Under the pieces are notes generated by a model that was not told the origin of the DNA, made no database searches, and worked only from the letters and a program-made list of their open reading frames with translations. Positions 30,615-46,405 of a DNA stretch of 64,000 nucleotides are shown one piece after another. Every line of letters starts with the position of its first letter. The stretch's first letter is position 1. A program made the position numbers and the translations under genes. Origin of the DNA: Bacteroidales bacterium (GTDB lineage: Bacteria; Bacteroidota; Bacteroidia; Bacteroidales; FEN-979); contig JALNZC010000013.1 of assembly GCA_023229525.1 (NCBI GenBank), positions 17,286 through 81,285 on the forward strand, in the 5' to 3' direction.

Positions 30615-31502
30615 CTACCGGTTATAGTTTCTTTCGGAATGACATCCCGGGGCGCATGTACCGCCGTTCTCCTGTGATACGAAATGGATGGGCATTTCCC
30701 ATTTACCGAAAGGAACCTTTTCGGCGATCAGTTGTGGGTTTAAGGCTCCGTGGACATTGTGGCAACTGATGCAGGTTCTGCTTTTACTGCCTTGGAGATG
30801 AAGATAATGCAGATTCTGCGTGCCACTCCTGAAACCCGTAGCAGTTCCGGTAGTTTTCAGCAGGAGCAAATCGCTGTTGTGGCAGGTAAAACAGACCAGG
30901 AAGTTTTCCTTGTGTGCTGAAGTATAAATCCCCTCGGGGAATGAACCATTCAGGATGAACGGGTTTGATGATCCGTGGGGCGTGTGACAGGCTGAACATC
31001 CCGGATTGGTTTTTCCACCGTGGAAATAGGTGCTGTTGATCACGTTCTTGCGGATATTCATAATGGGTTTGTTATCGGCGGTGACCGACTTGTTATGGCA
31101 GGTGAGGCAGGTTTTTGTCTCTTCGGCCAGCAGCAGTTTCTTTTCTGCTGATGCATGCGGAGAGTGGCAGTTCATGCAATTCTTCTCAGCAGTCACTGGT
31201 GGATGGGGGTGAGTGGCTTCTTGTGTAGCGGCCTGAATGTCGTCGTGGCAACTGAAGCATAGATCCGGGGTTTGTGCAGCCAGGGAGAAGCCTTTTTCTC
31301 CTTGGGAAGGGTGGGTATTACCGTTAGGCTTATGACAAATTCCGCAATTTTTTACAGCTGCTACATGTTTATACTCAGGTTCCATCAATTTTGAATGACA
31401 TTCGAGGCAATCCTGTGGATTTTTATACGGGACGGAGCTAAATACCAGGTTCAGTCTGGCCATATCAAACACAATAAAGATCATGACCAGGGAGAGTCTC
31501 AT
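30615..31502 (-). CDS. multihaem c-type cytochrome (8 CXXCH + 1 CX3CH)
   Basis: 295 aa with a hydrophobic N-terminus. Motifs are CLECH, CGICH, CFSCH, CMNCH, CLTCH, CSACH, CFTCH, CISCH plus C-terminal CAPGCH. The start overlaps the upstream barrel gene stop (ATGA at 31499-31502). Confidence 0.9.
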   Translation of the reverse strand: MRLSLVMIFIVFDMARLNLVFSSVPYKNPQDCLECHSKLMEPEYKHVAAVKNCGICHKPNGNTHPSQGEKGFSLAAQTPDLCFSCHDDIQAATQEATHPHPPVTAEKNCMNCHSPHASAEKKLLLAEETKTCLTCHNKSVTADNKPIMNIRKNVINSTYFHGGKTNPGCSACHTPHGSSNPFILNGSFPEGIYTSAHKENFLVCFTCHNSDLLLLKTTGTATGFRSGTQNLHYLHLQGSKSRTCISCHNVHGALNPQLIAEKVPFGKWEMPIHFVSQENGGTCAPGCHSERNYNR

Positions 31503-33466
31503 TTCCTGTACCAGTTAAAGTTTCTCACTATTTGAATAAATCCGCCCACATAATTGGTTTGCTCATGGAGATAATCACGCCGGAACACCTCCACGCCAAC
31601 TTTAAAGAATATCTGACGGAAAAGTGTGGTGAACTGGACACGACCGGTTAACAGGTTAAGGTCGATCTGCTGGCCTATTTGTTTACGATAACCGAATTCT
31701 ACGGAAAGAGTACTTTGATGCGCAAACTGGTATCCAACATTCCCGGTCACATCAATGAACTGCTGGCGTGTATTCTCAGCCGTCAGGTTGTAATCGCGCA
31801 TGTTCCCGCTGAGCGAAATGGTAACCTTGTATCCTAAATTTCCCTGCAGCTGTGCCCAATAACGGATAAGACGGTAGGGCACGATCGTACTCTGGTAATT
31901 CTCGAATTCCACACCGCCACTGGCAAACTTGTACTCAAGACGGCAGCCGTAAGTAGTTTGGGTGAAATAGTTCAAGGTAAGGTACTCCGCGGTTGTCAGG
32001 TTTGAATACCCCTGGTCGGCCCACTTGAAATATATCTCAAACAGGCGGTTGAAGAACGACACGCTGGCGTTGATGCATTGAAAATTGACATCATACTGAT
32101 AAGACCCCGGGAGCATGGCAACATAATCAACGTATACGCTCCCTTTATTTGGAATTTGTCCACCCGGCATACGCTGGATTTCCAGGAACGTGTTGCGCTG
32201 GATCAACACATAATCGAAATTGGGCTCATAGATGATCGTTCCGGTAACATCCTTCACAACTACCGAATTGAGATCAATATTGGCCTGGTTTAGCAAGGTC
32301 ATCTGACCGTCAGTAAGCACGTGCTCTTCGTGCAGGATAGGCTGGGGAACAGGTTCACTTGTATGTTTCTGACGTTGCCAATTATAAGTATAACCCAGCA
32401 TCAACCTGCCTTTTAAGGGGATTTTCTTCTCATAGTTTATATTGATACCCGCGATAAGGTTATTCTCTTTATAAAATGTATGACGGATCTGGTTATATTC
32501 CAGCGACAATCCCGAATTGAGGCTTTCGTACAACCGGTGACGCAGCATGGCCCGGATCGCATTCTGATTCATTTCCTGCGAATCCCTGCGGTAATCGTAA
32601 AAGTTATAACTTGTGCTTAAGCTGAAGCGTTTTGGGAGGTTCAGGTTTATGCTTTCATCTACCTGGATCCTGCGAAAAACGTCGGAGCCCCGCTGATCGA
32701 TACCGGAAATTGCTGAGATAAAGCTGTAATTGCGCTTTTTATCGAAGGAAATAGTATTGTTGAGACTCAGGTTATCGGAGATATTCCTTGATTCAGCGAT
32801 GTTTACATCATTCCTTGAATAGTCATTGTGAAAATAAATGAGTTGGCTGTTATCATAAGCAGAAAAGGATTTGTCGATCCGTGCCTGGATGGTTTGCTGT
32901 TGGGTGATGAATGAACGACCGGTAAGGATCTCAGTTTCGTACCATTTCCCCTGTTGGTAAGAGGCCTGGATGGGAAGGATCTTGTTCATCCAGATAAAAT
33001 TACCTCCAAAGTTGATGGTATTTGAGTGGATATTTGATAGGTTTTCACGACTGGTGTATACATTGTTATAGTTGAAAAAACCACTGAAGTTAATGGTCTT
33101 CTGGCGAAAGAAAGTGAGGGTGGCATCCAGTTTTTCCATAGTTCGTACCTCAGCCTGGTCGGGGATGACGAGAAAAAGATCCTTTCCGATAACCGGGTTG
33201 AATTCTCCGCCCAGGTGGAGCGAGATAAAATCAGGATGAATGAAATAACTGTCGGTGTTAAGTAGTATCCCACCATAAAACCGTGAACTTTCTTGGGTGT
33301 TGTAGATCTCGTTGGAATATCCGGCCTGGTAACGGTAATCGGCCCCAAGTTTCACAGCGCCATTTATCGAGTTGAGCGCCCAGAACCTCCGGGAAATGGA
33401 ATAATTCTGGGATAATCCCAGTGCGGGCAAAAGCAGCATTATGCAAAAAAAACGCAAGCCTTTCAT
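31499..33466 (-). CDS. large outer-membrane beta-barrel protein (candidate porin of a porin-cytochrome complex)
   Basis: 655 aa with a signal peptide (MLLLPALGLSQ) and no Cys-haem motifs. Tyr/Asn/Ser/Gly-rich with alternating amphipathic strand-like segments throughout. Sandwiched between two multihaem cytochrome genes. Confidence 0.65.
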   Translation of the reverse strand: MKGLRFFCIMLLLPALGLSQNYSISRRFWALNSINGAVKLGADYRYQAGYSNEIYNTQESSRFYGGILLNTDSYFIHPDFISLHLGGEFNPVIGKDLFLVIPDQAEVRTMEKLDATLTFFRQKTINFSGFFNYNNVYTSRENLSNIHSNTINFGGNFIWMNKILPIQASYQQGKWYETEILTGRSFITQQQTIQARIDKSFSAYDNSQLIYFHNDYSRNDVNIAESRNISDNLSLNNTISFDKKRNYSFISAISGIDQRGSDVFRRIQVDESINLNLPKRFSLSTSYNFYDYRRDSQEMNQNAIRAMLRHRLYESLNSGLSLEYNQIRHTFYKENNLIAGININYEKKIPLKGRLMLGYTYNWQRQKHTSEPVPQPILHEEHVLTDGQMTLLNQANIDLNSVVVKDVTGTIIYEPNFDYVLIQRNTFLEIQRMPGGQIPNKGSVYVDYVAMLPGSYQYDVNFQCINASVSFFNRLFEIYFKWADQGYSNLTTAEYLTLNYFTQTTYGCRLEYKFASGGVEFENYQSTIVPYRLIRYWAQLQGNLGYKVTISLSGNMRDYNLTAENTRQQFIDVTGNVGYQFAHQSTLSVEFGYRKQIGQQIDLNLLTGRVQFTTLFRQIFFKVGVEVFRRDYLHEQTNYVGGFIQIVRNFNWYRK

Positions 33467-33480
33467 CCCTTATTCCTGTT

Positions 33481-34035
33481 TCAGTTTAAAAAATACCGTT
33501 TATTCCCACCATGTGGATTATGACAAGTTGTACATGGCGATTCACCGATCTTCTCATGCTCCGGAGTTGCAAGGATACGGTCTGATTCATGGCAAGTGAA
33601 GCATAGCGCTTGTCCTGTTCGCAAAAGCAATTTTGGGTTCTCCGAATTGTGTGGGCTATGGCATTTGGTACAATTACCGGAGACCACTGGTCCATGCTCG
33701 AATTTCCCGTCATACGCATCATGACACTGATAGCAAAGACCAGGTTGAGGTTCGATCATGTTCCCAGGACGGTTGGGATCGTGACATACCCCGCATTTTT
33801 TAAGGGCAAACGGTGGATGTGCCGGGTGCTTCGATGCAGCAGTATTGGCAGCCAGTTCATTTAACAGGGCGGAATCCGATTTATTTCCGGTCTGTTTTGC
33901 AACCATTTTAACCGAATCATTCTTTTCGGGCACACCGTCGAAGAAGACAGTAAGCATCCTGTGCGAACATCCCAGTAAAAAGGAAAAAATGATCACTATC
34001 AGAGAAAGAGATATGTTTTTTTTTACCGGTGTCAT
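33481..34035 (-). CDS. pentahaem c-type cytochrome lipoprotein
   Basis: 184 aa with a lipobox (FSFLLGCS). Motifs are CGVCH, CYQCH, CTKCH, CFTCH, CTTCH. Confidence 0.9.
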   Translation of the reverse strand: MTPVKKNISLSLIVIIFSFLLGCSHRMLTVFFDGVPEKNDSVKMVAKQTGNKSDSALLNELAANTAASKHPAHPPFALKKCGVCHDPNRPGNMIEPQPGLCYQCHDAYDGKFEHGPVVSGNCTKCHSPHNSENPKLLLRTGQALCFTCHESDRILATPEHEKIGESPCTTCHNPHGGNKRYFLN

Positions 34036-34046
34036 CGTTATGTGTT

Positions 34047-35116
34047 TTATTTCGGGCTGATTGCACCGTACACATTGATCTTGTCGGGTCCGTATTGGTT
34101 GGTTACAAAGATGAGATAGTTAAGATTGTAAGCCTGATCCACATATTTATGGAAGTATTTCAGATTGTCATAATCGATGGTCACCTTTGCCGGAAGCCAC
34201 ATATCACCGGGGCCTTGATAAGGTCCGCCGAAAAAGAGCAGTACGCGACCAGTTTTATCAAAAATCTGCGTATTCTCGAAACTTGCATCCACCACATACA
34301 GGTTCTCTTTTTTATCTACGGCGATACCTTTGGGTCGTGCAAACTGGCCAAGGCCGCTCCCGTTGCTTCCCACAGATGACAAGTATTTCCCATCATGGGT
34401 ATAGGTCTTACATTAAAATCACCGATATCACTTACATAAACCTTATCGGGTGTAACATAAATGTTGGCCGGAGAATAAAGGTAACCAGGCTGACCCTGTT
34501 CGGCGTCAGGGAACGTATAGAGAAGTTCACGGGTATTCTTTTTATAAACGTTGATCCTGTTGTTTTTGATATTGGTTACCCAGATCGTATCGCCGGTCAC
34601 AAAGACATCGGTCGGCTTAAATTTATCGGTCTCGCCAAAAGCGCCTATATAGGTTCCGTCCGCTTCAAAGACAACTACTTGCATTCGAATTCCATCGGCA
34701 ACATATAGTTTTCCGGTATCGTCCACGAAACAATTGAGTGGAAGTTTGAGTTTCCCGTTGCCTATCGGTTCGAAATAGGTGAAGGTATTTTTCTCAAGGT
34801 CGATCACTTCAATGAGACCCATGCCTGTATCACAGATATAGATCTTTCCTCCATGCATAGCAATACCGTATGGTTTTTTAATCGGCTTTACCGGGGATTC
34901 GCCAAAAATGAACCGCGAAAATGCTGATTGTTTACCGGTGCTGTTCTCGGAACTGCTGAAAGAAGTCAGAAACTGGATCCTTGCTGTGTCTGGCGGGGGT
35001 GGGTAGGTAACCACTACTTTAAAGGTGGACGTTTTATGCAAACGCCTCGAGCAACCTGAAAAAAGCAGGAATAGGATTCCCGGGATCAGCAATACGGTAA
35101 GAATTTTTCTGTACAT
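34047..35116 (-). pseudogene. NHL-repeat beta-propeller lipoprotein, interrupted by a 1-nt frameshift (or assembly error)
   Basis: ORFs 34316..35116 and 34047..34382 overlap in different frames. Joined at about 34407-34411 they read ...VYVSDIGDFNV/KTYTHDGKYLSSVGSNGSGLGQFARPKGIAVD..., a continuous NHL repeat paralogous to the 40787..41794 protein. Lipobox LLFSGCS. Confidence 0.7.
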
Positions 35117-35145
35117 GGTTAGCTACGTTTCCCAAAAATGATTAA

Positions 35146-35172
35146 TTGGAGGGGATTAAATGGCCCTTCCAA
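35146..35172 (-). terminator. intra-operon hairpin (attenuator or partial terminator) after the tetrahaem cytochrome gene
   Basis: On the minus strand, TTGGAAGGG-loop-CCCCTCCAA (8/9 paired), followed by TTAATCATTTTT. Lies between the cytochrome stop (35206) and the NHL start (35116). Confidence 0.45.
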
Positions 35173-35205
35173 ATCATTGCTTCAACAGATAAAAATGATA
35201 AAAAT

Positions 35206-35835
35206 TTATTTGTTATGGCAGGTAAGGCAGAGGGCACTGGCGACATTGGTCTTCCGTAGCAGGTGCGCAATTCCGGTTCCGTTGTGTACATTGTGACAGG
35301 ATGCACATTCCAGTTTGTTATTGAACAACATGGTCTGTGAAATGGTTCCGGTACCGATTCCTGAAGGATGGGTAGTAGGATTCCACAGACCGGGGTCGGC
35401 TGCTGCCAGCGCAGCGTCGAAAACAAAGGAGATCGGGTGGTCATTCCGCAGATCAGTTCCCACATTGTTGACCGTTGTGATAAAATGAGTCCCGTTTGTT
35501 GTACCACCGAAGTTTTCGAGGGCTACGGTGCCGTCGTGGCAACTCAGACAGAGTTTCGAACTGCCGCTGGGTTGTGTAATGGTTGCTGCTCCGTTAAATG
35601 TCGGACTGGTGTATAGCTGGAAGGTTGCGGTAGTAGATCTGTGGTTCCATAGCGGAGCATCCGGAATGGTGATATCCGCATTGTGCGGTGTGTGACAGCA
35701 GATGCAAATCTGTTGGGTAGTATTCCAGGTCTGCGCTGAAAAATCGTGAGCAGAACCTACGATGGTTTGCCCTAAACCAACATTAACAAGAAAGAAAAAT
35801 GCCGGCAATGCAGTTAATAGTTTCTTGATTTTCAT
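35206..35835 (-). CDS. tetrahaem c-type cytochrome (secreted)
   Basis: 209 aa with a Sec signal (FFFLVNVGLGQ). Motifs are CICCH, CLSCH, CASCH, CLTCH. Colinear similarity to residues about 20-205 of the 559-aa cytochrome (PLWN, CLSCHDGT.AL, NDHP.SF.(Y/F)DA.LAAAD). Confidence 0.9.
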   Translation of the reverse strand: MKIKKLLTALPAFFFLVNVGLGQTIVGSAHDFSAQTWNTTQQICICCHTPHNADITIPDAPLWNHRSTTATFQLYTSPTFNGAATITQPSGSSKLCLSCHDGTVALENFGGTTNGTHFITTVNNVGTDLRNDHPISFVFDAALAAADPGLWNPTTHPSGIGTGTISQTMLFNNKLECASCHNVHNGTGIAHLLRKTNVASALCLTCHNK

Positions 35836-35936: not shown

Positions 35937-35954
35937 AGTCAAAGATTATGCCAA
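35937..35954 (-). promoter_or_regulatory. candidate sigma-54-type promoter (TTGGCAT-N5-TTTGACT, minus strand)
   Basis: The reverse complement of AGTCAAAGATTATGCCAA has GG/-12 spacing matching TGGCAC-N5-TTGC, except the -12 element reads TTGA. It lies about 100 nt upstream of the cytochrome ATG (35835). A 13/17-identical copy occurs at 41877-41894. Confidence 0.35.
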
Positions 35955-36204
35955 AAACAATAATAATAGGGATGGATGGCTATACGGCTATTATTTTTGC
36001 CCGGATTGAGTAAAAATTATAACAGGACAGTAGTTGTAAATGCCACAAATTTAATTACATAATAAATGTTTTCCAGATTATTTTCATATCCTGGAAGTTT
36101 ATCGTTTTTCTTTGGAAAAACAAGAGATCGAAAGAGTAACCGGAATATAAAATCCGGGTGGGTCAATTCACTCAATCCGGGGTGGGGCAAATTACCCAAC
36201 TGCC

Positions 36205-37584
36205 TCATAGACTGTATTTCTTCATCTTATAACGGAGGGTATCACGGGTAATCCCAAGCAATCTGGCCGCCCGGGTCTGATTTTGGCTGGTCTTTTTCAG
36301 TGCAGTGATGATGGTCTGTTTCTCAATGTCATACAATGATGTGCCTTCGGCGAAGAATCCTCCCACTTCTTCGGATGCACGTTGCAAAGGTTTCTGTTCC
36401 TCTTTAAGTTTCACCATTTCGGCAGGCAGGCTTTCAGCATGGATAATATCGCTTGTTTCAAGAATGACAGCCCGTTCGATAACATTGCGCAATTCCCGTA
36501 TATTTCCAGGCCAGTTGTACATTTCAAGAAGTTGTTTGGCCGCAGGATCGATCATCTGGATATTTTTTCTGAAGCGGGAATTGAAATATCTAAGGAAATG
36601 ATCGGAAAGTAATGGGATATCCTCCGTATGTTCACGCAGTGGCGGGATGATGATGCGGAAAACCGTAAGACGGTAATACAGATCTTCGCGAAAGGTCTTC
36701 TCTTCAATGGAACGTTTCATGTCTTTGTTGGTCGCGGCGATGATGCGGATGTCGACCGGAATATCGGCAGTACCGCTGATCCGGCGGATCACCCTGTTTT
36801 CGATTACGCCGAGAAGTTTCACCTGGGTAGCCTGGTTGATCTCCCCGATCTCATCCAGGAAAACGGTGCCTCCTTCAGCCATCTCGAACAGTCCTTTCTT
36901 AAGTTTTTTTGCATCGGTAAAAGCCCCCTGTTCATGACCGAAAAGTTCGCTCTCCAGCAGTGTTTCGGGGAGCGAGGAGCAATTGATTGTGACAAAGGGC
37001 TTACTGGCCCGGCTGCTTTCGTTGTGGATAGCGTGCGCGAAAAGGTCTTTCCCCGTGCCACTTTCACCCAGCAGCAGAATGGTGGTGGTATTGATCCGGG
37101 CTATCTTCTTCGACAACTGGATGATCTTGAGAATTTCGGGTGAGCGGCCGACAATATGGTCGAAGGTGACTTTTTCCTTGTGTTGCCGCCTGAGCAACTG
37201 AACCTCGTTGTTGACGCTGATCTTCTCCCGGATTATGTCTATAATAGCATAGATTTCCTTGAAGGAAAAGGGTTTGTTTATATATTCCTGGGCCCCGAGT
37301 TTCATTGCCTTGACCGCGGTATCGATCGAACCGTAAGCAGTCATAAAAACAATGTTGGTATCCTCGTGCATGGCCCGGATTCGTGTGATCACCTCCAGCC
37401 CCTGGATACCAGGGAGTTTATTGTCGACAAAGGTAATGTCGGGAAACTGTGATTCAAAGAGCTGCAGCCCCTCTTCCCCGCTCTCGGCGGTAAACACGGA
37501 ATATCCCTGCGCCTTCAATTTTTTTTCAAATGACCAGCGAATCAGCTGTTCATCATCGATCACCAATATTTTCAAAGTTTGCAT
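36205..37584 (-). CDS. sigma-54-dependent response regulator (NtrC family: REC-AAA+-Fis HTH)
   Basis: Receiver (ILVIDDE ... DNKLPGIQG), AAA+ Walker A GESGTGKDL, GAFTGA-type loop (GAFTDA) and a C-terminal HTH (RAARLLGITRDTLRYKMKKY). Confidence 0.95.
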   Translation of the reverse strand: MQTLKILVIDDEQLIRWSFEKKLKAQGYSVFTAESGEEGLQLFESQFPDITFVDNKLPGIQGLEVITRIRAMHEDTNIVFMTAYGSIDTAVKAMKLGAQEYINKPFSFKEIYAIIDIIREKISVNNEVQLLRRQHKEKVTFDHIVGRSPEILKIIQLSKKIARINTTTILLLGESGTGKDLFAHAIHNESSRASKPFVTINCSSLPETLLESELFGHEQGAFTDAKKLKKGLFEMAEGGTVFLDEIGEINQATQVKLLGVIENRVIRRISGTADIPVDIRIIAATNKDMKRSIEEKTFREDLYYRLTVFRIIIPPLREHTEDIPLLSDHFLRYFNSRFRKNIQMIDPAAKQLLEMYNWPGNIRELRNVIERAVILETSDIIHAESLPAEMVKLKEEQKPLQRASEEVGGFFAEGTSLYDIEKQTIITALKKTSQNQTRAARLLGITRDTLRYKMKKYSL

Positions 37585-37620: not shown

Positions 37621-39075
37621 CTAATTTACCGGAAGAGAAATATAGAATGTGCAGCCTTTGTCAGGATTGTTCTCAACCCTGATCTCCCCCTGGTGCATAT
37701 CAATGATCTCCTTGACAATGGCCAATCCAAGACCCGTTCCCTGGGTCCGGGTGGTGTAAAAGGGTTTGAAGATATCCGGCAGTTTGTCCTCAGGAATACC
37801 GATACCGGTATCCCTGACCGCGATTTGTACCTTTTTCCCGGCAGCCGACCAGGAGGTCTCATAAGTGATGGTGCCACGTACATCCGATGCCTGCACTGCA
37901 TTCAAACCCAGGTTCAGCAGCACATTCTCCACCTGTTCCGGGTCGAAATAAAAGAGCGGTATATCTTTGCCCAATTCCACCTTGAAATTAATCTTTTTAT
38001 TGATAGCCTGATTCTCAAGAAAAAAAACAACCGATTTAATAATTTCATTGATGTCGGCTTCCTGTGGATTAAGATCCTTCGAGCGGGAGTAGTTGAGGAG
38101 GTTTGAAACTGCTTTATTCACGCGGTTTGCCTGTCGCTGGATCTCCTCAAGTACCGGTTTATTTTCGGTATCCTTGGTTTCCTCAATAATAATTTCAATG
38201 GCATTCGCTATTCCGGTGATCGGGTTGCGGATTTCGTGGGCCAGCCGGGCCGACATCTCCCCGATAGTGGCCAGTTTCTGTGAAGTCCTGATCTCCTGTT
38301 GATGGTATTTCTGAAGCTCATTCTGTGTCTGCTGGAAATGTCCCACCATTTCGTTGAAACTTTTTCCCAACCGGCCCAATTCGGTTGACTTCGGGATAGT
38401 AAGTCGTTCGTTGAGGTTCCCCTGGTTAATGACATTGATGGCCTTTTGGAACTCAGAAAGCGACTTCCTGACGATCTTGTAATGGAGGGTTAAAACAAAC
38501 CCGAGAACAAGTAAGATCAGGATCACCGTGAAGATAAAGCTGAACTGACGGGTGAAAGCAATGGTGTCGCCCGGGGAGTGCATGGCGAAATCGATTCCGA
38601 TATACCCCAGGATGGGTTTGGTAGATGCATGACAATTATAGCAGGTCGGACTGTTTTTCAGGCGGATGATAGCCCGGGAAAAAGGAACGTTTGCATCCTG
38701 GAATGTCGTCAGGGTGATGTCGTTAGGTAAGGACGCAAGCTTCCGAAGGTTAATGGTATCGAATTCATTCGGATTGAATTGGGAAGGGTATAGCACTTTC
38801 CCATCGGCATCAATTAAATAAGAATGAATAACCTGCCCGTTCTTGTCAAGCTGACGCAGACTTGGTTTGATGATCCGGCCGTCATGCACGGCTACGATCT
38901 GGCCCTTCATCAGAGTGAGTACCGACAAAATATCCTCTTTTGCATTCTCGTAGATCTTTTTGCTGAGGTAATAATTATAGATGTAAAAAGAGAAGAAGGA
39001 CATTACCGTAATGACCACGATGATGGTTGTTACAATTTTAAACCGGAAGGAGGTAAAATTAATTTCTATTTTCAT
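37621..39075 (-). CDS. sensor histidine kinase with a periplasmic domain carrying a c-type haem-binding motif
   Basis: TM1 (IVTTIIVVITVMSFFSFYIY), an extracytoplasmic domain of about 150 aa containing SPTCYNCHAS, TM2 (FSFIFTVILILLVLGFVLTL), HAMP, H-box LAHEIRNPITG and G-box GTGLGLAIV. Confidence 0.9.
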   Translation of the reverse strand: MKIEINFTSFRFKIVTTIIVVITVMSFFSFYIYNYYLSKKIYENAKEDILSVLTLMKGQIVAVHDGRIIKPSLRQLDKNGQVIHSYLIDADGKVLYPSQFNPNEFDTINLRKLASLPNDITLTTFQDANVPFSRAIIRLKNSPTCYNCHASTKPILGYIGIDFAMHSPGDTIAFTRQFSFIFTVILILLVLGFVLTLHYKIVRKSLSEFQKAINVINQGNLNERLTIPKSTELGRLGKSFNEMVGHFQQTQNELQKYHQQEIRTSQKLATIGEMSARLAHEIRNPITGIANAIEIIIEETKDTENKPVLEEIQRQANRVNKAVSNLLNYSRSKDLNPQEADINEIIKSVVFFLENQAINKKINFKVELGKDIPLFYFDPEQVENVLLNLGLNAVQASDVRGTITYETSWSAAGKKVQIAVRDTGIGIPEDKLPDIFKPFYTTRTQGTGLGLAIVKEIIDMHQGEIRVENNPDKGCTFYISLPVN

Positions 39076-39107: not shown

Positions 39108-40787
39108 TCAGTAAGTTTCAGGGTTATGATTTTCCCCATGGCATACAAGCCGGCAGCTGCCATGACGGACCCCGGTATCTGTGAACTGGATGATCCCTCC
39201 GGAAGGACTTACCACAGCGGTATTAAAATTAACGAGGTTGGAGTTGTTCGTTGTCGTGCCGGGACTGCCTATACCATGTGCATCATGGCAGACATTGCAG
39301 GGTGTGCGCTCTTCTACGATATGTAAACGATGTCTCGGGAAGCTATTGATATTGTTGATAATGTTGTTCCGGTTATGACAGGTGTAGCAAAGAGCATAGG
39401 CAGCGGCCGATTCCGTGGTATTATCGGCTGTAAGGTACTGTGCTTTCATGATATGTGGATAGATCGATCCGTGGGGGCCGGCCGGAGAACCGGTACCATC
39501 ACTGGCGTGACAGGCGGTACAGTAAATTACAGTGGAGGCCGTATTGGGTGCGATCAGATTCCCTGTGATCTCCGTATTGTTCCGTGGTCCGACCACCGGA
39601 TGGAACGAGGGGTTAGTCGTGGCAAATTCAAGACGTACATTGTTTTGTACGATAACGCGGGGAGAGGCCGGTGGGGCCATCCCTGGAGTATTGGTATGAC
39701 AACGGTAACAGATCTGGTACTCGTAAACAGCCGGGTTTACCTGACTCCCATTCTGGTCGATCCCTTTTACACCGGTGATAAAGCCATTCACGTTGGGCGC
39801 CACAGCCGTGGTATTGTTGGCCTGGTGGGCATTATGACAGTCGGTGCACTCTACATGGTTTGTGCTCACCAGCGCATTCTCAACAGGGTCGTGAATCCCT
39901 TGGTAGCCATATACATTGTGCTTGTAGGTTTTTGCAGCTTGAGCCTGGATGTTCTTAACTGCCACGTTTCCATTATGGCAATCGAGGCAGTTATTTTCCT
40001 CGGGAAGCCAATCCATCAAACGGAGTTTCCCGGCGGCGGAATGGGGATTATGACAGTTTTCGCACCCATTATCGGCAACTGTAGTATACGGGCTATGGAA
40101 CCAGGGATTGGGGGCGACGCCATTCCAGGTGCTGGTTGAGTTACGGTGGCTTGCAGTAACCCAATTTGCAGGTGTATGGCAAACAAGACAAAGGTTCGAT
40201 GCCTGTGTAGTAGCCACGAGAAAAGCTGAATAGATATTCTTGTGTGGATCATGACAGGAGGTACACTGGAGTTTACCGTTCTCCAACTTTACAGGACCGG
40301 TGAGGGTAGCCGGATTCACCAGTTGTCCGTCGGCGGCTGCGAGTGTAGCATCATAGATAAACGAGAGCGGGTGGTCGTTGGAGATATCCTTGGTGAGGTT
40401 GCTCACCCCAGTAGGCATTGTCGTAACGCCGCCAGCCATGATAATCGGCGTTGTACGGCTGATGATGCTTCCAAGGGCAATGGTACCATCGTGACAGGAG
40501 AGACAGAGGATCGATGCCCCGTCGGGTTGTCCGAGAATAGCCTGTGTAGTGGAACTGGCATAAAGGGTATAGGTTAGTCCCGGGTCAGACCGGTTCCACA
40601 GGGGGTGATCCGGCCGTGAATTATGAGGTGCATGGCAAAAAATGCATATTTCGGATTCTGTAGTTGCTTTGATGGCGCCGGGTCCACTTACCGACAGGTT
40701 ATGCTTTGTGGATACTATGGTTTGTGAATAAACAGCCAGCGGTATCCAGAACAACTGCAGCAGGCTGATCTTCAGTAGTCTAATCAT
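39108..40787 (-). CDS. multihaem c-type cytochrome (11 CXXCH + 1 CX3CH)
   Basis: 559 aa with a Sec signal. Motifs are CIFCH, CLSCH, CTSCH, CLVCH, CENCH, CLDCH, CTDCH, CYRCH, CTACH, CYTCH, CNVCH plus C-terminal CRLVCH. The start overlaps the upstream NHL gene stop (TAATG). Confidence 0.9.
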   Translation of the reverse strand: MIRLLKISLLQLFWIPLAVYSQTIVSTKHNLSVSGPGAIKATTESEICIFCHAPHNSRPDHPLWNRSDPGLTYTLYASSTTQAILGQPDGASILCLSCHDGTIALGSIISRTTPIIMAGGVTTMPTGVSNLTKDISNDHPLSFIYDATLAAADGQLVNPATLTGPVKLENGKLQCTSCHDPHKNIYSAFLVATTQASNLCLVCHTPANWVTASHRNSTSTWNGVAPNPWFHSPYTTVADNGCENCHNPHSAAGKLRLMDWLPEENNCLDCHNGNVAVKNIQAQAAKTYKHNVYGYQGIHDPVENALVSTNHVECTDCHNAHQANNTTAVAPNVNGFITGVKGIDQNGSQVNPAVYEYQICYRCHTNTPGMAPPASPRVIVQNNVRLEFATTNPSFHPVVGPRNNTEITGNLIAPNTASTVIYCTACHASDGTGSPAGPHGSIYPHIMKAQYLTADNTTESAAAYALCYTCHNRNNIINNINSFPRHRLHIVEERTPCNVCHDAHGIGSPGTTTNNSNLVNFNTAVVSPSGGIIQFTDTGVRHGSCRLVCHGENHNPETY

Positions 40788-41794
40788 TACTTTCCTCCGT
40801 TCATGAGTTGAAATACCTGTATTCTCGAATTATAGCTATCAGCAATATAGATCTGGTCGCGATTATCAATATAAATACCAGAGGGCATCCAGAACTCCAT
40901 GTTCCCGTGTCCGCGTGTACCAAAGGTGTATAGTAACTGCCCCTGCGGGTTAAAGATCTGTACGGCGCTGAACAGGGCATCAGCAATATAAATATTGCCG
41001 TAGGAGTCAGTGGCGATCCCTTTCGGACGGGCGAAATCGCCACTGCCGTCACCAGGTTTACCGAACTGAGAGATGAATTCGCCATCAGCGGAAAAGATCT
41101 GAATGCGAAAATTCAAGGCATCCACGATATATACTTTGCCATTCCTGTCGACCCACACTGAGGTTGGATAATTGAATTCACCAGGTGCAGTGCCTCTTTT
41201 CCCGAACCGTTTCAACACTTTCCCATATTCATCCAGCACTGATACCCGGTGGGCATTGGTCTCCACCAACCAGATCCGGTGATCCGACGGCACCCAGGCT
41301 ATCCCTGTAGGCCGGTCGAAAGTGGAGTCGGTAAGCAGTGTGAGCGACTTTTTATCCGGTGTACATAAAAAAATCTTATTATAATAGGAATCGGTGAAAA
41401 GAAAACTATTTTCCTTGAAAGGTGTAATACCTACCAGGGAGGGGAAATTTTTGTACTTTTTATTTCTGAAGTGGGTTATTTCACCCACTTTGTCTTTCAC
41501 CTTGAAGATCACCCCGTTCTCCTGGTCAAGTACATACAAAGAAAGGGAATCCTTTGCAATAACACCTACCGGACGTGTTAGTTCCATTGAGTTTTTTTTA
41601 CCCAGAATGAGTTCGGCGATGCGTGTACCGAGACTGCGTTTTGGTTTTTCATTGGCAAGTGGAGGATATTGAGATATCCAGGCAATATAAGGCGAATCCT
41701 CAACCTTTCGGACAAACTCCTGCGCCCGAGCCTGAAACACGCCACAGGTATAAATTATGATAAACAGGATGATGATTATTCTGTTAGTTTGCAT
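40787..41794 (-). CDS. NHL-repeat six-bladed beta-propeller protein (secreted)
   Basis: 335 aa with a signal peptide. Repeated NHL units, e.g. GEFNYPTSVWVDRNGKVYIVDALNFRIQIF, GDFARPKGIATDSYGNIYIADALFSAVQIF, MEFWMPSGIYIDNRDQIYIADSYNSRIQVF. Confidence 0.9.
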   Translation of the reverse strand: MQTNRIIIILFIIIYTCGVFQARAQEFVRKVEDSPYIAWISQYPPLANEKPKRSLGTRIAELILGKKNSMELTRPVGVIAKDSLSLYVLDQENGVIFKVKDKVGEITHFRNKKYKNFPSLVGITPFKENSFLFTDSYYNKIFLCTPDKKSLTLLTDSTFDRPTGIAWVPSDHRIWLVETNAHRVSVLDEYGKVLKRFGKRGTAPGEFNYPTSVWVDRNGKVYIVDALNFRIQIFSADGEFISQFGKPGDGSGDFARPKGIATDSYGNIYIADALFSAVQIFNPQGQLLYTFGTRGHGNMEFWMPSGIYIDNRDQIYIADSYNSRIQVFQLMNGGK

Positions 41795-41876: not shown

Positions 41877-41894
41877 AGTCAAATTTAGTGCCAA
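41877..41894 (-). promoter_or_regulatory. candidate promoter for the NHL-cytochrome-kinase-regulator operon (TTGGCAC-N5-TTTGACT; alternatively a sigma-A -33/-7 promoter)
   Basis: The minus strand reads TTGGCACTAAATTTGACT, about 83 nt upstream of the ATG at 41794. The same TTTG is followed after 19 nt by TAATTTTG (a perfect TAnnTTTG), so a housekeeping promoter is an equally good reading. Confidence 0.35.
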
Positions 41895-41987
41895 ACAATA
41901 GAAATAGCGAAAGGAGAATACGATAAGTCCACAATACAATATTTTATTATCTTTTTCGTACTTTTATCTGGATTGAATATTAAAAAC

Positions 41988-44900
41988 ATGAAAAAAATAC
42001 CTACCCTGCTTTTCTCTTCACAGATGACCCTTTTGCTTTTGATGATCTTTGCCATAGCTATCGGGTCGGCCACTTTCATCGAGGAAAAATTTGACATAGT
42101 TACGGCTCGCCTATTGGTATACGATGCCTGGTGGTTCGAACTTGTGCTGTTGCTTCTCGCCCTCAATTTCATAGGGAATATCAGTCGATATAAGCTTTGG
42201 CGCAGAGAGAAGATATCAATCCTGTTATTTCATCTTGCGTTCATTCTCCTGATCCTCGGAGCAGGGATCACCCGTTACCTGGGTTTTGAAGGGATGATGC
42301 ATATACGGGAAGGGAATTCTTCACGGGTCATATATAGCTCCACTCCCTATCTTCAGGTGAATGCGACCGGGAAGGATTTCGATTTCTCTTTGAATAAACC
42401 CCTTCTATTCAGTGAGATGGTTCCTAACCGGTTCAGTTTTGGATTCGACACCAGGGGGAAGGGAAAGATTTCAGTTTCTTTCCATGATTATATGAAGAAT
42501 GCCGTATCACGGATCAATGAAAATGTAAGGGGAGGTACAACGATTGTTCAGATGGTCCTTGCCGCTTCGGAAGGCAGAGAAACAGTGCTCATCGAAAAAG
42601 GAGAGATTGTGGATCTGGGAAATGCTGTGATCGCGTACGAAAATAACAACCGGAAGGATGCCATCCGGCTTTCGGAAAGAAATGGGAAACTTTTTCTCTC
42701 ATCACCCTCCGGTATCGTGATGTCGTTCATGCATGGTATGGGCAGTACCAGTGATACTACTGTTAATCCACCGGTGACAGATACCATACAGGAATTTAAG
42801 GCAGGTTATATTTATAGTACTCAGGATGTCCTGCTGCTTTTCGTTAAACGATTTACCGGCGCTGAAAAAGAGTTGGTCCGTGGAAAGGCCAATGACCAGG
42901 GTTCCGAGGTGCTTTTCGTGGATGTGGCCTTTGAAGGCAAAACCCGCACTGTTCCTTTGTTCGTCGGCACAGGATACAATACGGCTGTAAAAGAACTCAA
43001 TCTGGATGGGGTTAGAATGAAACTCGCATACGGAAACAAAGAAATTACCTTACCCTTCTCCCTTCAGCTCGACGATTTCATCCTTGACCGCTATGCAGGA
43101 TCAATGAGCCCATCCTCATATGCCAGCGAGGTCACCCTCATCGATAGCGAAAGGAATCTCCGGGAAAAACGGCGGATATATATGAACCATGTGCTTGATC
43201 ACCGGGGCTACCGTTTTTTTCAGTCCTCATACGATATGGATGAAAAAGGGACGGTGCTTTCGGTGAACCACGACCGGGCAGGAACATGGGTCTCTTACGC
43301 CGGGTACATCCTGCTGGCAATCGGTTTCATCGGCACACTTTTCAACAAAAACTCCAGATTTCGCATCCTTAGCAAAGCAATCGACCGGATCCGGTCGGAA
43401 CGGAAGGCAGGGATCATGGTCACCCTTTTCTTCTTCCTTTTTGCCTCTGTTTCCTGCTTTGCCCAGCAAGAAACTGTTCAGCCATACGTCGGGGCCGATC
43501 ATGCGGAGAAATTCGGACACCTGTTGGTGCAGACTTTCGATGGACGTTTTGAACCGATTCATACCCTGGCCTACGATGTGATGCATAAAATTTCACGAAA
43601 GGACCAAATTCACACCGACAAAAAGGGCGATATGGATGCAATCCAGGTTTTCATGGATATGCTTATGGATCCCGAATACTGGAAACACCAGAAGATCATC
43701 TATGTGCGTGAAAAAGCTGTGAGGGATATCCTTGGTGTAGGCGGACAATATGCCTGTTTTTATGATTTTGTCGACCAGCAGTCGAACTACAAACTTTCCT
43801 CCTTTGCTGAAAAAGCCTTCCGCAAGAGACCTGCAGAGCAGAATGCTTTCGATAAGGAAATCATCAAAGCGGATGAACGGATCAACATATGGATGAGCGT
43901 TCAAAACGGTTCATTGCTCAAGATCTTCCCGGAGCAAAACGCGATCAATCACGGGTGGATCAGTTTTGTTGATACATTGGCCCGAGTGCCCCTCACCGGG
44001 AAATTGCGCGATATAAACAGCGATCTTCCCCTGAATCAGTTAGATTATAACAATTTAATGCGTTATTACCTTCAGGCTGTTTATGACGGCGCCCGGACGG
44101 GTGACTATACAAATGCCGACCTCGTGCTGAAGCACCTGGAAAGTACCCAGCGGGAAGGAACCCCCGAAAATCTTTTACCAACCATTTCCAAAATAAATAC
44201 AGAGATATGGTATAATAAATCGCAGATCTTTATAACACTACGGAATATTTACGGAGTACTCAGTCTGTTCCTGCTCGTGTTTGCCTTTGCGGAAAACCTT
44301 CGATCACGCAAGAGCCGTTTCGTTTCCTGGACATTAAATTTACTGACGATTGTGCTCGGTGCAGCATTTTTATACCACACCTGGGGTATGGCGCTCCGGT
44401 GGTATCTCACCGGACATGCCCCCTGGAGTAACGGTTATGAGGCATTGTTGTTGGTCGCCTGGGGAAGTCTCCTGGCCGGATTCTGTTTCATGAAATACTC
44501 CCGGATCACGCTGGCGGCCACAGCAGTACTTGCTTTTATGGTACTAATGACGGCAGGTCACAGCAGTTACGATCCACAGCTGACCAACCTTCAACCTGTG
44601 CTGAAATCCTATTGGCTGATCGTACATGTAGCGGTGATCACCGTAAGTTATGGATTCCTGGCGCTTGGTTTTTTACTTGGGCTGATCAATATGTTCATCT
44701 TTCTTTTCAAAACGAAAATCCAAGCCTTCCGCCTCGACCTGATTATCAGGGAGCTGACCCTGACCAACGAAATGACGCTGATCATCGGAATTGTGCTGGC
44801 GACCATCGGTACCTTTCTTGGCGGTGTCTGGGCCAATGAATCCTGGGGCCGGTACTGGGGCTGGGATGCCAAGGAAACATGGGCGTTGGTCATCGTGATC

Positions 44901-45155
44901 ACCTACGCGATTATCTTGCATCTTAGATTCGTTCCAGGGTTAAAGGGAAATTTTATTTTCAACATAGCGTCAGTGATTGGTTTCGGAAGTGTGATCATGA
45001 CTTTTGTCGGGGTTAATTATTATCTTTCGAAAGGACTTCACAGTTATGCTGCTGACGATAAAAAGGTGTTTCCTTTGTGGGGTTGGGGATTAATTCTGGG
45101 GATAATCTTACTCATGATTGTGGCAGGTTATAGGGAACGTTTGTCGAAGAAATGA
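41988..45155 (+). CDS. ccsBA: fused System II cytochrome c biogenesis protein CcsBA (ResB-CcsA)
   Basis: 1055 aa from the ATG at 41988 (the ORF track begins at TTG 41973). The N-terminal part is ResB-like with TMs and a large soluble domain. The C-terminal part is CcsA-like with the Trp-rich WWD motif WGRYWGWDAKETWALV. Confidence 0.9.
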   Translation: MKKIPTLLFSSQMTLLLLMIFAIAIGSATFIEEKFDIVTARLLVYDAWWFELVLLLLALNFIGNISRYKLWRREKISILLFHLAFILLILGAGITRYLGFEGMMHIREGNSSRVIYSSTPYLQVNATGKDFDFSLNKPLLFSEMVPNRFSFGFDTRGKGKISVSFHDYMKNAVSRINENVRGGTTIVQMVLAASEGRETVLIEKGEIVDLGNAVIAYENNNRKDAIRLSERNGKLFLSSPSGIVMSFMHGMGSTSDTTVNPPVTDTIQEFKAGYIYSTQDVLLLFVKRFTGAEKELVRGKANDQGSEVLFVDVAFEGKTRTVPLFVGTGYNTAVKELNLDGVRMKLAYGNKEITLPFSLQLDDFILDRYAGSMSPSSYASEVTLIDSERNLREKRRIYMNHVLDHRGYRFFQSSYDMDEKGTVLSVNHDRAGTWVSYAGYILLAIGFIGTLFNKNSRFRILSKAIDRIRSERKAGIMVTLFFFLFASVSCFAQQETVQPYVGADHAEKFGHLLVQTFDGRFEPIHTLAYDVMHKISRKDQIHTDKKGDMDAIQVFMDMLMDPEYWKHQKIIYVREKAVRDILGVGGQYACFYDFVDQQSNYKLSSFAEKAFRKRPAEQNAFDKEIIKADERINIWMSVQNGSLLKIFPEQNAINHGWISFVDTLARVPLTGKLRDINSDLPLNQLDYNNLMRYYLQAVYDGARTGDYTNADLVLKHLESTQREGTPENLLPTISKINTEIWYNKSQIFITLRNIYGVLSLFLLVFAFAENLRSRKSRFVSWTLNLLTIVLGAAFLYHTWGMALRWYLTGHAPWSNGYEALLLVAWGSLLAGFCFMKYSRITLAATAVLAFMVLMTAGHSSYDPQLTNLQPVLKSYWLIVHVAVITVSYGFLALGFLLGLINMFIFLFKTKIQAFRLDLIIRELTLTNEMTLIIGIVLATIGTFLGGVWANESWGRYWGWDAKETWALVIVITYAIILHLRFVPGLKGNFIFNIASVIGFGSVIMTFVGVNYYLSKGLHSYAADDKKVFPLWGWGLILGIILLMIVAGYRERLSKK

Positions 45156-46405
45156 TCCTCTTAAAAAAGGCGTCCCACCATTATTTCCGATCAGTATTAC
45201 TCCACCGTTATTGGGACCCCTTCATTGGTTACAAATTGGGGTGGGATGGAAGGGGAAATAAGTTGGTTGAAGATGAAAATGAAAGTAAATGGTTACGATA
45301 CATCTTCACCGAATATTCAAAGGGGACATCCTTGAAGGATATCAAATCGACACTTCATGTAAATGGAATAAAGACACGAAGGGGTAATGATCTTTGGTCG
45401 ATGGGATCGTTACAGGTGATGTTAAGGAATGACATTTATATTGGTAATCAAGTTTTTGTGGATAAAAAGTCGAAGATTGTCATTCGTAACACCATTCCCC
45501 AATTGGTATCCAATACCCTTTGGGATGAAGTTCAACATAGACGAAATTCGATATTGGTAAGAAGAAACCAAGTCAACCGGACGAAGAAATTTTATCTGTT
45601 CCGGGACTTCCTGATTTGTAAATGTGGTACCCCTATGGGTGGAAGAAGTCGGATCGACAAAGGATTAAACCATTATTACTGTCCACTTCCGGAAAGGAAA
45701 TTCAATAACAATTATAAAAATGATGTCCACTGTGATATGAAACGGGGGTTGAACATCCCGACGACCAATGGTGTCCTTTGGAATAAAATCATCGACATTC
45801 TTTCTGATACGATGGAGTTGAAAAAGACTTTGACAAAAATGACAAACATCGGAAAATTGGGGAACTCAAAAGGTTTGAAGGTGGAAAGTAAATCAATTGA
45901 AGATAAAATTCGTAAACTACTGAAAGTCAAATCTGATATAGAAAAAGGGTTAGTCGAAGTCGAAACAAAAAAAATCTTACAAAAATACCCCTCAAATGAG
46001 GTTTACCAGTCTTTACGAAAATCTCTGACCAACTCGCTCAACCAGACCAAATCAGAAATTGAAAAATTAAGAAATTCACTTCAACAGATTGGGGATCAAC
46101 AATCTTGGTTTTTGTGGATTGAAACCTTCGGAAATGACATTAGTGAAAAAAGACACCTTCCGGATCCTTTAAAAAAAATATTATTAAAACAAGTATTGGA
46201 TTGTATAACTGTGGATTATGACTGGGTGGAGAAGGTTCATCGACTAAATATTTCCTTCAAAATACCCGTATTCACGGGTGATCGGGAGGACAAATATTCA
46301 CCAAATATACTTGTGCCTTCGGAAACCCTTGGTAATCAACCCGACCAACTTGTCCCCGTTGAAACCTACTCCACCGTTACCGATTTGGCCAGGTTTCGCG
46401 GTTGA
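45152..46405 (+). pseudogene. large serine recombinase remnant lacking the N-terminal resolvase catalytic domain
   Basis: The ORF begins at the recombinase-domain boundary (...IGYKLGWDGRGNKLVEDENESKWLRYIFTEYSKGTSLKDIKSTLHVNGIKTRRGNDLWSMGSLQVMLRNDIYIGN). It has a zinc-ribbon (FLICKCGTPMGG...YYCP) and a coiled-coil tail. No catalytic Ser domain is present. The last 40 nt run antisense into the glmS 3' end. Confidence 0.65.

Follow-up and report, generated by a model that had tools for sequence, protein, structure and literature searches.

A Predicted Haem-c Cache Sensor Kinase Linked to Probable Sigma-54-Type Control of an OmcE-Like Cytochrome Operon in Bacteroidales

Periplasmic sensor domains that carry covalently bound haem c, including those of kinases, are already known. 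Two structurally characterised examples from Geobacter, GSU0935 and GSU0582 (Protein Data Bank [PDB] entries 3B42 and 3B47; Pfam PF21563), switch spin state upon reduction and bind carbon monoxide (CO) and nitric oxide (NO) (PMC8396549). A 2026 preprint united both with Tll0287/DUF3365 as 'sCache_heme', a Cache domain with a short inserted helix and a CXXCH motif conserved at 99%, occurring in kinase, methyl-accepting chemotaxis protein (MCP) and GGDEF architectures, one signalling member of which binds NO tightly (PMC12889525). On the regulatory side, falling redox potential leads the sigma-54-dependent response regulator BccR of G. sulfurreducens to induce the cytochrome operon cbcBA (bioRxiv 10.1101/2021.04.15.440034), an established case of redox conditions acting on respiratory cytochromes through sigma-54. 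Here, we describe a sensor histidine kinase encoded within a cytochrome island of an uncultured Bacteroidales bacterium (contig JALNZC010000013.1; the 64,000 nucleotides analysed are referred to as the window), which is a new, divergent member of the haem-c sensors, and whose neighbouring genes and DNA elements together predict a control circuit for an OmcE-like cytochrome operon. The features of the kinase gene are as follows.

37621 to 39075, minus strand: sensor histidine kinase gene, 484 amino acids (aa) (open reading frame [ORF] and translation)
38968 to 39036, minus strand: first transmembrane segment (TM1) or signal anchor, residues 14-36 (hydropathy scan; three K/R in the N-terminal 13 residues)
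38548 to 38967, minus strand: predicted periplasmic sensor domain, residues 37-176, about 140 aa (between TM1 and TM2; Cache/PAS-like model)
38629 to 38643, minus strand: CYNCH (C145, C148, H149), predicted covalent haem-c site with proximal His, residues 145-149 (translation)
38479 to 38547, minus strand: second transmembrane segment (TM2), residues 177-199 (hydropathy scan), followed by HYKIVRKS and HAMP (nucleotides 38338-38469)

The likeness to the Geobacter sensors is one of layout and fold. GSU0935, GSU0582 and the kinase all place a domain of roughly 130-140 aa between two transmembrane segments and ahead of a HAMP domain, share a PAS-like/Cache fold in which a short helix with a single CXXCH precedes the last strand, lack a Cys axial ligand, and carry the proximal His at nearly the same residue number (His143/His144 in Geobacter, H149 in the kinase). 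They differ in output, which is MCP in the Geobacter proteins and HisKA/HATPase feeding a sigma-54 regulator in the kinase; in phylum, Desulfobacterota as opposed to Bacteroidota; and at the distal Met60 of GSU0935, which has no conserved counterpart in the kinase family, where H64 is found instead in 38 of 47 orthologues. Cluster 2 of sCache_heme resembles the kinase in its transmembrane, HAMP and kinase signalling architecture and in the absence of a Tll0287-type Cys ligand, whereas the sCache_heme model PF11845 gave no match to the kinase at any E-value tried; the text of PMC12889525 mentions neither Bacteroid* nor sigma.

The kinase contains HAMP (residues 203-246), HisKA (272-332) and HATPase_c (378-483) domains by Pfam, with H280 of the HEIRNP box read from the translation as the H-box His. 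A Kyte-Doolittle scan found two hydrophobic segments and no others, with peaks at residues 14-32 and 179-197. Since HAMP directly follows TM2, residues 37-176 must face the periplasm; the extracytoplasmic position of the sensor domain is thus a prediction from topology. H198, within TM2, is invariant across the sensor family alignment. The initial annotation had described a histidine kinase with a CXXCH-bearing periplasmic domain between TM1 and TM2, and ORF, Pfam and hydropathy all agree with it, though the domain is about 140 aa rather than the 150 aa given there. It had also named the motif as the only Cys pair of the domain, and rightly so, as the Cys residues of the whole protein are 145, 148 and 475. 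The best NCBIfam matches, AtoS (245 bits; cut-off 646) and ZraS (198 bits; cut-off 479), cover the kinase core only and fall far below both equivalog cut-offs. The AtoS/AtoC and ZraS/ZraR pairs share the wiring of HAMP, HisKA and HATPase with REC, AAA+ and HTH_8 seen here, but their sensor domains are unrelated to that of the kinase.

Conservation singles out the CXXCH motif, around which the sensor segment reads NSPTCYNCHAST. When the residues of the domain were shuffled, C..CH arose in 3.6e-4 of trials. A word-indexed search of 5.8 billion proteins with kinase residues 1-200 returned 13 relatives, all of them kinases of 483-493 aa except for one partial sequence of 326 aa, and orthologue identity in the sensor region ranged from 40 to 78%; C145, C148 and H149 were invariant in the alignment of the kinase with 12 full-length close orthologues. 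Just 51 proteins reached E<=1e-3 when 1.84 billion cluster representatives were searched exhaustively with phmmer, so the sensor family is small. Across an alignment of 39 homologues reaching down to 17% identity, these three residues were the sole invariant columns, and all three were retained in 47 of 47 full-length syntenic orthologues translated from separate species-level genomes, among which N141, G157, L156, R134 and D162 were nearly invariant. By these sequence comparisons, the CXXCH of the sensor domain is not due to chance. The wider sensor family is coupled to further outputs besides HisKA kinases, namely GGDEF (P0050), MCP (P0059) and HisKA_3 (P0052). Five distant homologues (P0050, P0051, P0052, P0060 and P0063) have two CXXCH motifs in the sensor region, 36-39 residues apart, and look like di-haem variants.

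Kinship with structurally characterised haem-c sensors emerged from profiles and from a structural model. A profile built from 23 sensor regions (A3) matched the sensor domain of GSU0935 (3b42_A) with E=1.4e-4; the alignment spans some 100 residues, pairs positions 63-165 with 29-127, and sets the CXXCH of the kinase in register with the CQSCH of GSU0935. The match of the profile to GSU0582 (3b47) had E=0.06. Homology to a haem-c sensor of solved structure is thus found at the level of this profile. An AlphaFold2 model of the sensor region, computed on the same alignment (pLDDT, the per-residue confidence score, 84.6; pTM, the global one, 0.69), comprises helices at residues 10-63, 66-77, 110-114 and 143-147 and strands at 82-89, 94-96, 120-127, 130-140 and 155-164. 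In it TM1 runs on as one continuous helix (10-63), a beta-hairpin and a short helix come after the second helix, and the helix bearing the CXXCH (143-147) precedes the last beta-strand and then TM2. In a Foldseek search against the PDB the top-ranked match was an integrative model of WalK, and the best specific matches were 3b42 (E=2.2e-5) and 3b47 (E=2.3e-4), followed by the Cache domains of CitA, LuxQ, KinD and PctA/C. Where the initial annotation had suggested predicting the domain as PAS-like or four-helix, the model therefore points to a single Cache (PAS-like) fold, into whose C-terminal strands the short CXXCH helix is inserted.

Curated models reach this family from its far side. PF21563 (Mcp40H-20_sensor) matched 17 of the 39 family members: close homologues of the kinase scored 17-20 bits against a cut-off of 27, and the distant homologues P0049 (32.6 bits) and P0061 (29.5 bits) exceeded it, P0049 being homologous to the kinase sensor at a phmmer E of 1.2e-6. 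Another distant homologue, P0063, was the sole one to pass PF11845 (Tll0287-like), with 28.1 bits. The kinase itself clears the cut-off of neither model, and is therefore filed as a distant member rather than a model-defined one. Judged from the profile match to 3b42, the Foldseek matches to 3b42 and 3b47 and the distant homologues that pass PF21563 or PF11845, the sensor of the kinase belongs to the sCache_heme family as a divergent branch beyond the reach of these two models, which supports the proposal that it is a haem-c sensor of the kind described in Geobacter.

We predict that C145 and C148 almost certainly bind a covalent c-type haem, with H149 as proximal iron ligand. The capacity of the genome to attach haem is not in doubt from its gene content: maturation genes comprise the CcsBA of the island, a second Cytochrom_C_asm protein (699 aa as an open frame) and, on contig C91, the System I genes, namely a further Cytochrom_C_asm-family match and CcmE. 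Two kinds of cytochrome-c maturation system thus coexist in the genome (contigs C68 and C91 besides the island). The domain has no Cys beyond the two of the motif, which excludes a Cys/His pair of ligands like that of Tll0287. In GSU0935 the ligands are His144 and Met60 (PMC8396549), and by a hand count on the A3 profile alignment Met60 would map about three residues before H64. H64 is invariant in the close alignment of 13 sequences, yet it is not kept family-wide, and M56 and M165 are not conserved; a conserved distal ligand was rejected on these grounds. The sixth position of the haem is probably labile or variable, which is compatible with both redox-linked and ligand-linked switching.

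Around the kinase gene lie a regulator gene, candidate regulatory elements and an operon that we predict to be their target.

36205 to 37584, minus strand: NtrC-type response regulator, 459 aa (Pfam and NCBIfam), starting 36 nt after the kinase gene
36159 to 36198, no strand assigned: two dyads TGGGNNAWWTNNCCCA, exact at 36183-36198 and with one mismatch at 36159-36174, starting 7 nt past the regulator stop codon
35939 to 35953, minus strand: -24/-12-like element TGGCATAATCTTTGA, about 100 nt upstream of the OmcE-like ATG, its -12 part being TTGA and not TTGC
30615 to 35835, minus strand: predicted target operon (from synteny) of an OmcE-like cytochrome, an NHL protein, a 184-aa cytochrome, a 655-aa protein and a 295-aa cytochrome
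41879 to 41893, minus strand: second sigma-54-type element TGGCACTAAATTTGA, 85 nt upstream of the ATG of the NHL gene that opens the operon of the kinase
41472 to 41487, no strand assigned: third exact dyad TGGGTTATTTCACCCA, inside the NHL gene at 40787-41794, in codons for VGEITHF

The regulator has a REC domain (D54), a sigma-54 AAA+ domain (Walker A GESGTGK, loop GAFTDA), AAA_lid and a Fis-type HTH_8, and its best NCBIfam match is AtoC (458 bits, far below the equivalog cut-off of 714). All parts of an NtrC-family two-component system are thus present in the pair: H-box His, ATPase domain, receiver Asp, AAA+ domain, GAFTGA-type loop and helix-turn-helix. The regulator adjoins the kinase in every one of about 60 loci, and is its probable cognate partner. 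BccR shares the NtrC-type receiver/AAA+/HTH architecture and the position beside a cytochrome operon, which it activates through a -24/-12 promoter. The operon that BccR targets encodes a complex of the bc type in the inner membrane, whereas here an OmcE-like, conduit-type cluster follows and a sensor gene stands beside the regulator. For BccR no sensor is named, and the term 'histidine kinase' is absent from the text of bioRxiv 10.1101/2021.04.15.440034.

The -24/-12-like element owes its weight to position and conservation. Exact matches to TGGCAY-N5-TTGA number two in the 64-kb window, both on the minus strand (35939-35953 and 41879-41893), while TGGCAC-N5-TTGC with up to two mismatches was not enriched across the window (35 matches, 50 expected), so the two sites matter only because of where they lie and how well they are conserved. 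Of the 48 orthologous intergenic regions that separate the regulator gene from the OmcE-like gene, 47 had a GG...TTG core at the best site, 26-95 nt from the ATG in 46 regions and 271 nt in one (L042), against a background of 0.12 such sites per 300 nt; column counts were 48/48 and 47/48 for the two G, 48/48 for TT and 47/48 for the final G. The region ahead of the first operon, that of the kinase, served as control and had a comparable site in only 11 of 44 loci. About ten of these stood at a constant 72-98 nt in the clade of the window and a few others, which suggests that TGGCACTAAATTTGA serves autoregulation of the kinase's operon in the window's clade. The Bacteroidetes sigma-A -7 box is TAnnTTTG. 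Reading the element as such a box was rejected, as it fits one of the two window sites only and leaves unexplained why 47-48 of 48 loci have an invariant GG at constant spacing.

Upstream of this element, the k-mers TGCCCCA, TAACCCA and TCACCCA were enriched 7- to 13-fold in 49 upstream regions and resolve to the 16-bp dyad listed above. The pair in the window is spaced 24 bp centre to centre; across orthologous loci the dyad is usually paired as well, 23-24 bp apart and right after the regulator stop codon, and the pair sits 150-400 nt upstream of the -24/-12 element. Three dyad positions recur across loci, and the motif is nearly absent elsewhere. The third position is intragenic and occupies identical codon positions in 34 of 48 loci, where the encoded residues vary (T/P, E/D, H/Q, as in VGEITHF, VGDIPHF and VGEIPQS) while the GTG and CCC/ACC codons are fixed; a dyad kept despite residue changes, in fixed codons, points to selection on DNA, and TGGGTTATTTCACCCA may act within the gene as an enhancer or operator. 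Other clades have a divergent sigma-54-like promoter, TGGCATAATTGTTGC, and there the dyad is positioned some 430 bp upstream of it. We predict that the dyads are binding sites of the regulator (upstream activator sequences). The genome has rpoN, so that a sigma factor gene, an element conserved in 47 of 48 regions and paired upstream dyads occur together around a promoter whose function is predicted. The earlier suggestion that a sigma-54 regulator controls the island gains support from these features and from gene order in about 60 genomes.

Further genes of the island flank the kinase on its upstream side.

39108 to 40787, minus strand: multihaem (12-haem) cytochrome, 559 aa (Pfam), 32 nt upstream of the kinase gene
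40787 to 41794, minus strand: NHL propeller (Pfam), overlapping the gene of the 559-aa cytochrome; first gene of the kinase's operon
41973 to 45155, plus strand: CcsBA, a ResB and CcsB fusion and System II cytochrome c synthase (PF05140, PF01578, TIGR03144)

Synteny was assessed by tblastn of ten island proteins against 88 loci fetched in a scan with alignment A1. Essentially every locus with a full-length kinase orthologue, about 60 in all, had the same nine-gene order: NHL, 12-haem cytochrome, kinase, NtrC-type regulator, OmcE homologue, NHL, cytochrome, homologue of the 655-aa protein, and cytochrome. A match to the 559-aa cytochrome precedes the kinase wherever upstream sequence is present, except in locus L044. 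Loci L072-L088, which matched by the kinase core only and had neither a CXXCH nor cytochromes nearby, were dropped as non-members. The carriers are Bacteroidales metagenome-assembled genomes (labelled Lentimicrobiaceae, Prolixibacteraceae and Draconibacterium), Chlorobiota-labelled ones, whose lineages are probably Ignavibacteria-like, and the cultured Carboxylicivirga marina N1Y132. Within the genus of the window, 10 further genomes of 36 have an intact strong kinase orthologue, and in an eleventh it is divided into two pieces; in other families of the order the orthologue was absent. The cassette is accessory. The C. marina isolate (L053, NZ_JAENRR010000001.1) has the whole cassette, with a kinase orthologue of 45% identity and CVECH at residue 147, and its best -24/-12 candidate is weak (6/10).

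The CcsBA gene is divergent from the operon of the kinase and 2.9 kb from the kinase itself, and it flanks the cluster in 12 related loci (e.g., L001, L009, L014, L025, L028, L045 and L067). The initial annotation was correct to place the kinase inside a cytochrome operon, but ccsBA is not its immediate neighbour. A 417-aa ORF (45152-46405, plus strand) has its start at the stop codon of ccsBA and overlaps with glmS, encoded on the opposite strand, at the 3' end of the latter.

The predicted target operon is separated from the regulator gene by 370 nt. It opens with a tetrahaem cytochrome of 209 aa (35206-35835) that matches the OmcE filament subunit 7tfs at E=1.7e-27, and its 655-aa protein had no Pfam match. 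The second NHL gene of the island (34047-35116, minus strand) is split into ORFs of 266 aa and 111 aa in different frames, the latter corresponding to residues 246-356 of the intact 361-aa orthologue in locus L001 (81% identity), the result of either a frameshift or an assembly error. The last cytochrome (30615-31502, minus strand) has 295 aa as opposed to 431-434 aa in orthologues; its residues from 32 onwards align with the L001 protein from 171, which leaves it short of a module of about 136 aa, likely lost through a deletion between repeated haem modules.

We propose that the island encodes a circuit in which haem is attached to the sensor domain in the periplasm by the CcsBA of the island or by another maturation system of the genome, and in which electron exchange with the periplasmic cytochrome pool, or a small bound ligand such as NO or CO, would act as trigger. 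The resulting change in haem oxidation, spin or ligation would alter the Cache domain and pass via TM2 and HAMP to the DHp/CA core around H280, so that the kinase would set the phosphorylation level of the adjacent regulator at D54, a phosphotransfer we infer from the architecture of the pair. The regulator would then bind the paired dyads just downstream of its own gene and activate sigma-54 RNA polymerase at the TGGCAY-N5-TTG promoter, driving transcription of the OmcE-like cytochrome and the four genes behind it, and in the clade of the window it would probably also drive its own operon. We consider this overall mechanism, from haem-c Cache kinase through a dyad-bound regulator to sigma-54 transcription of the OmcE-like operon, to be likely.

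Several observations weigh against it. The sensor domain alone had zero Pfam matches even at E<=10 and, as a single sequence, no match among PDB sequences; PF21563 and PF11845, run on the whole genome, did not find the kinase gene, and what they matched was noise or CXXCH stretches of multihaem cytochromes. Identity between the kinase and the Geobacter haem-c sensors is just 13-16%, which makes the profile match to GSU0935 a modest link, and the root-mean-square deviation of the Foldseek match to 3b42 is high (12 Angstrom), which we tentatively attribute to the domain-swapped crystal dimer. At the promoter, the strict pattern TGGCAY-N5-TTGA was read from the two sites of the window itself before it was tried on the other loci. 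At -12 the canonical GC is missing (TTGA/TTGT), and the base after TTG varies among T, A, C and G, so that the element is atypical. The distal ligand is not conserved, and the ligation chemistry is therefore not predictable from the alignment. Finally, the frameshifted NHL gene and the shortened cytochrome may mean that the output of the circuit is impaired in this genome, or they may be assembly errors.

As for what the haem would sense, we favour the redox state of the periplasmic cytochrome pool, with confidence somewhat short of even, because the kinase gene keeps its place within an electron-transfer cassette and shares a transcript with a multihaem cytochrome, because its Geobacter relatives change spin state upon reduction (PMC8396549), and because BccR responds to falling potential with induction of cbcBA (10.1101/2021.04.15.440034). 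In a more specific version, which we put forward tentatively, the haem would be a redox tap on the conduit and not a sensor for a diffusible ligand, exchanging electrons with the co-transcribed 12-haem cytochrome or the periplasmic pool and reporting how reduced the chain is. NO or CO as stimulus is the main rival, and we judge it rather unlikely. The domain would then carry haem c as a dedicated gas sensor (for NO, perhaps CO or O2), and a ligand taken up at an open or labile sixth position would switch the kinase, in line with what has been proposed for sCache_heme proteins in signalling. We regard this possibility as unlikely but serious: a signalling P. azotoformans sCache_heme-HAMP protein without a Cys axial ligand releases NO with a koff of about 6e-4 per s (PMC12889525), the kinase likewise has no third Cys and its family no conserved distal Met or His, and the binding of CO and NO by GSU0582 and GSU0935 is reversible (PMC8396549). 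Yet no genes for NO detoxification or nitrogen-oxide respiration were seen among the island genes scanned, the only recognisable function of the cassette is extracytoplasmic electron transfer, and the same Geobacter relatives also show redox-linked spin switching (PMC8396549).

Readings in which haem plays no part in signalling are much less probable. It is very improbable that the CXXCH is a redox-active disulphide or a Zn, Cu or Fe site with the His, sensing thiol oxidants or metals; though CXXC pairs can serve as periplasmic thiol switches, and though the curated haem-sensor models do not match the kinase, whose haem attachment is predicted, H149 is as invariant as both Cys residues, which a disulphide switch does not require. 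The motif is moreover in register with the haem-binding CQSCH of a homologous fold in GSU0935, relatives pass Pfam models of families with structurally characterised covalent haem c (PMC12889525), and maturation genes are at hand. About as improbable, in our view, is a Cache pocket that binds a small organic or inorganic ligand while the haem is a structural relic without a signalling role. Such a pocket would suit a fold shared with the ligand-binding Cache domains of CitA, KinD and PctA and the conservation of R134, N141 and D162 beside the CXXCH, but the sole universally invariant residues of the sensor are the three haem-binding ones, and a relic would not have survived in every distant homologue as well as in 47 of 47 orthologues.

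What is new here is the predicted control circuit; our literature search found no description of a haem-sensing kinase that controls an OmcE-type or extracellular electron transfer cluster. Bacteroidota are abundant in anoxic sediments and digesters. How the building of extracellular cytochrome wires and conduits is controlled is poorly understood even in Geobacter and essentially unstudied in Bacteroidota, and the locus offers a complete, testable circuit of predicted haem-bearing sensor, sigma-54 activator, probable binding sites and OmcE-like operon promoter that is conserved in about 60 genomes, one of them that of a cultured species (Carboxylicivirga marina N1Y132). The current Pfam models miss one branch of haem-c Cache sensors, and the spread of these sensors in Bacteroidota is therefore underestimated. 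If the redox tap proposed above is true, the cassette would be a self-contained feedback circuit for cytochrome-nanowire expression, adjusting through the sigma-54 regulator how much OmcE-like nanowire subunit and outer-membrane conduit is made, across Bacteroidales and Chlorobiota-labelled lineages.

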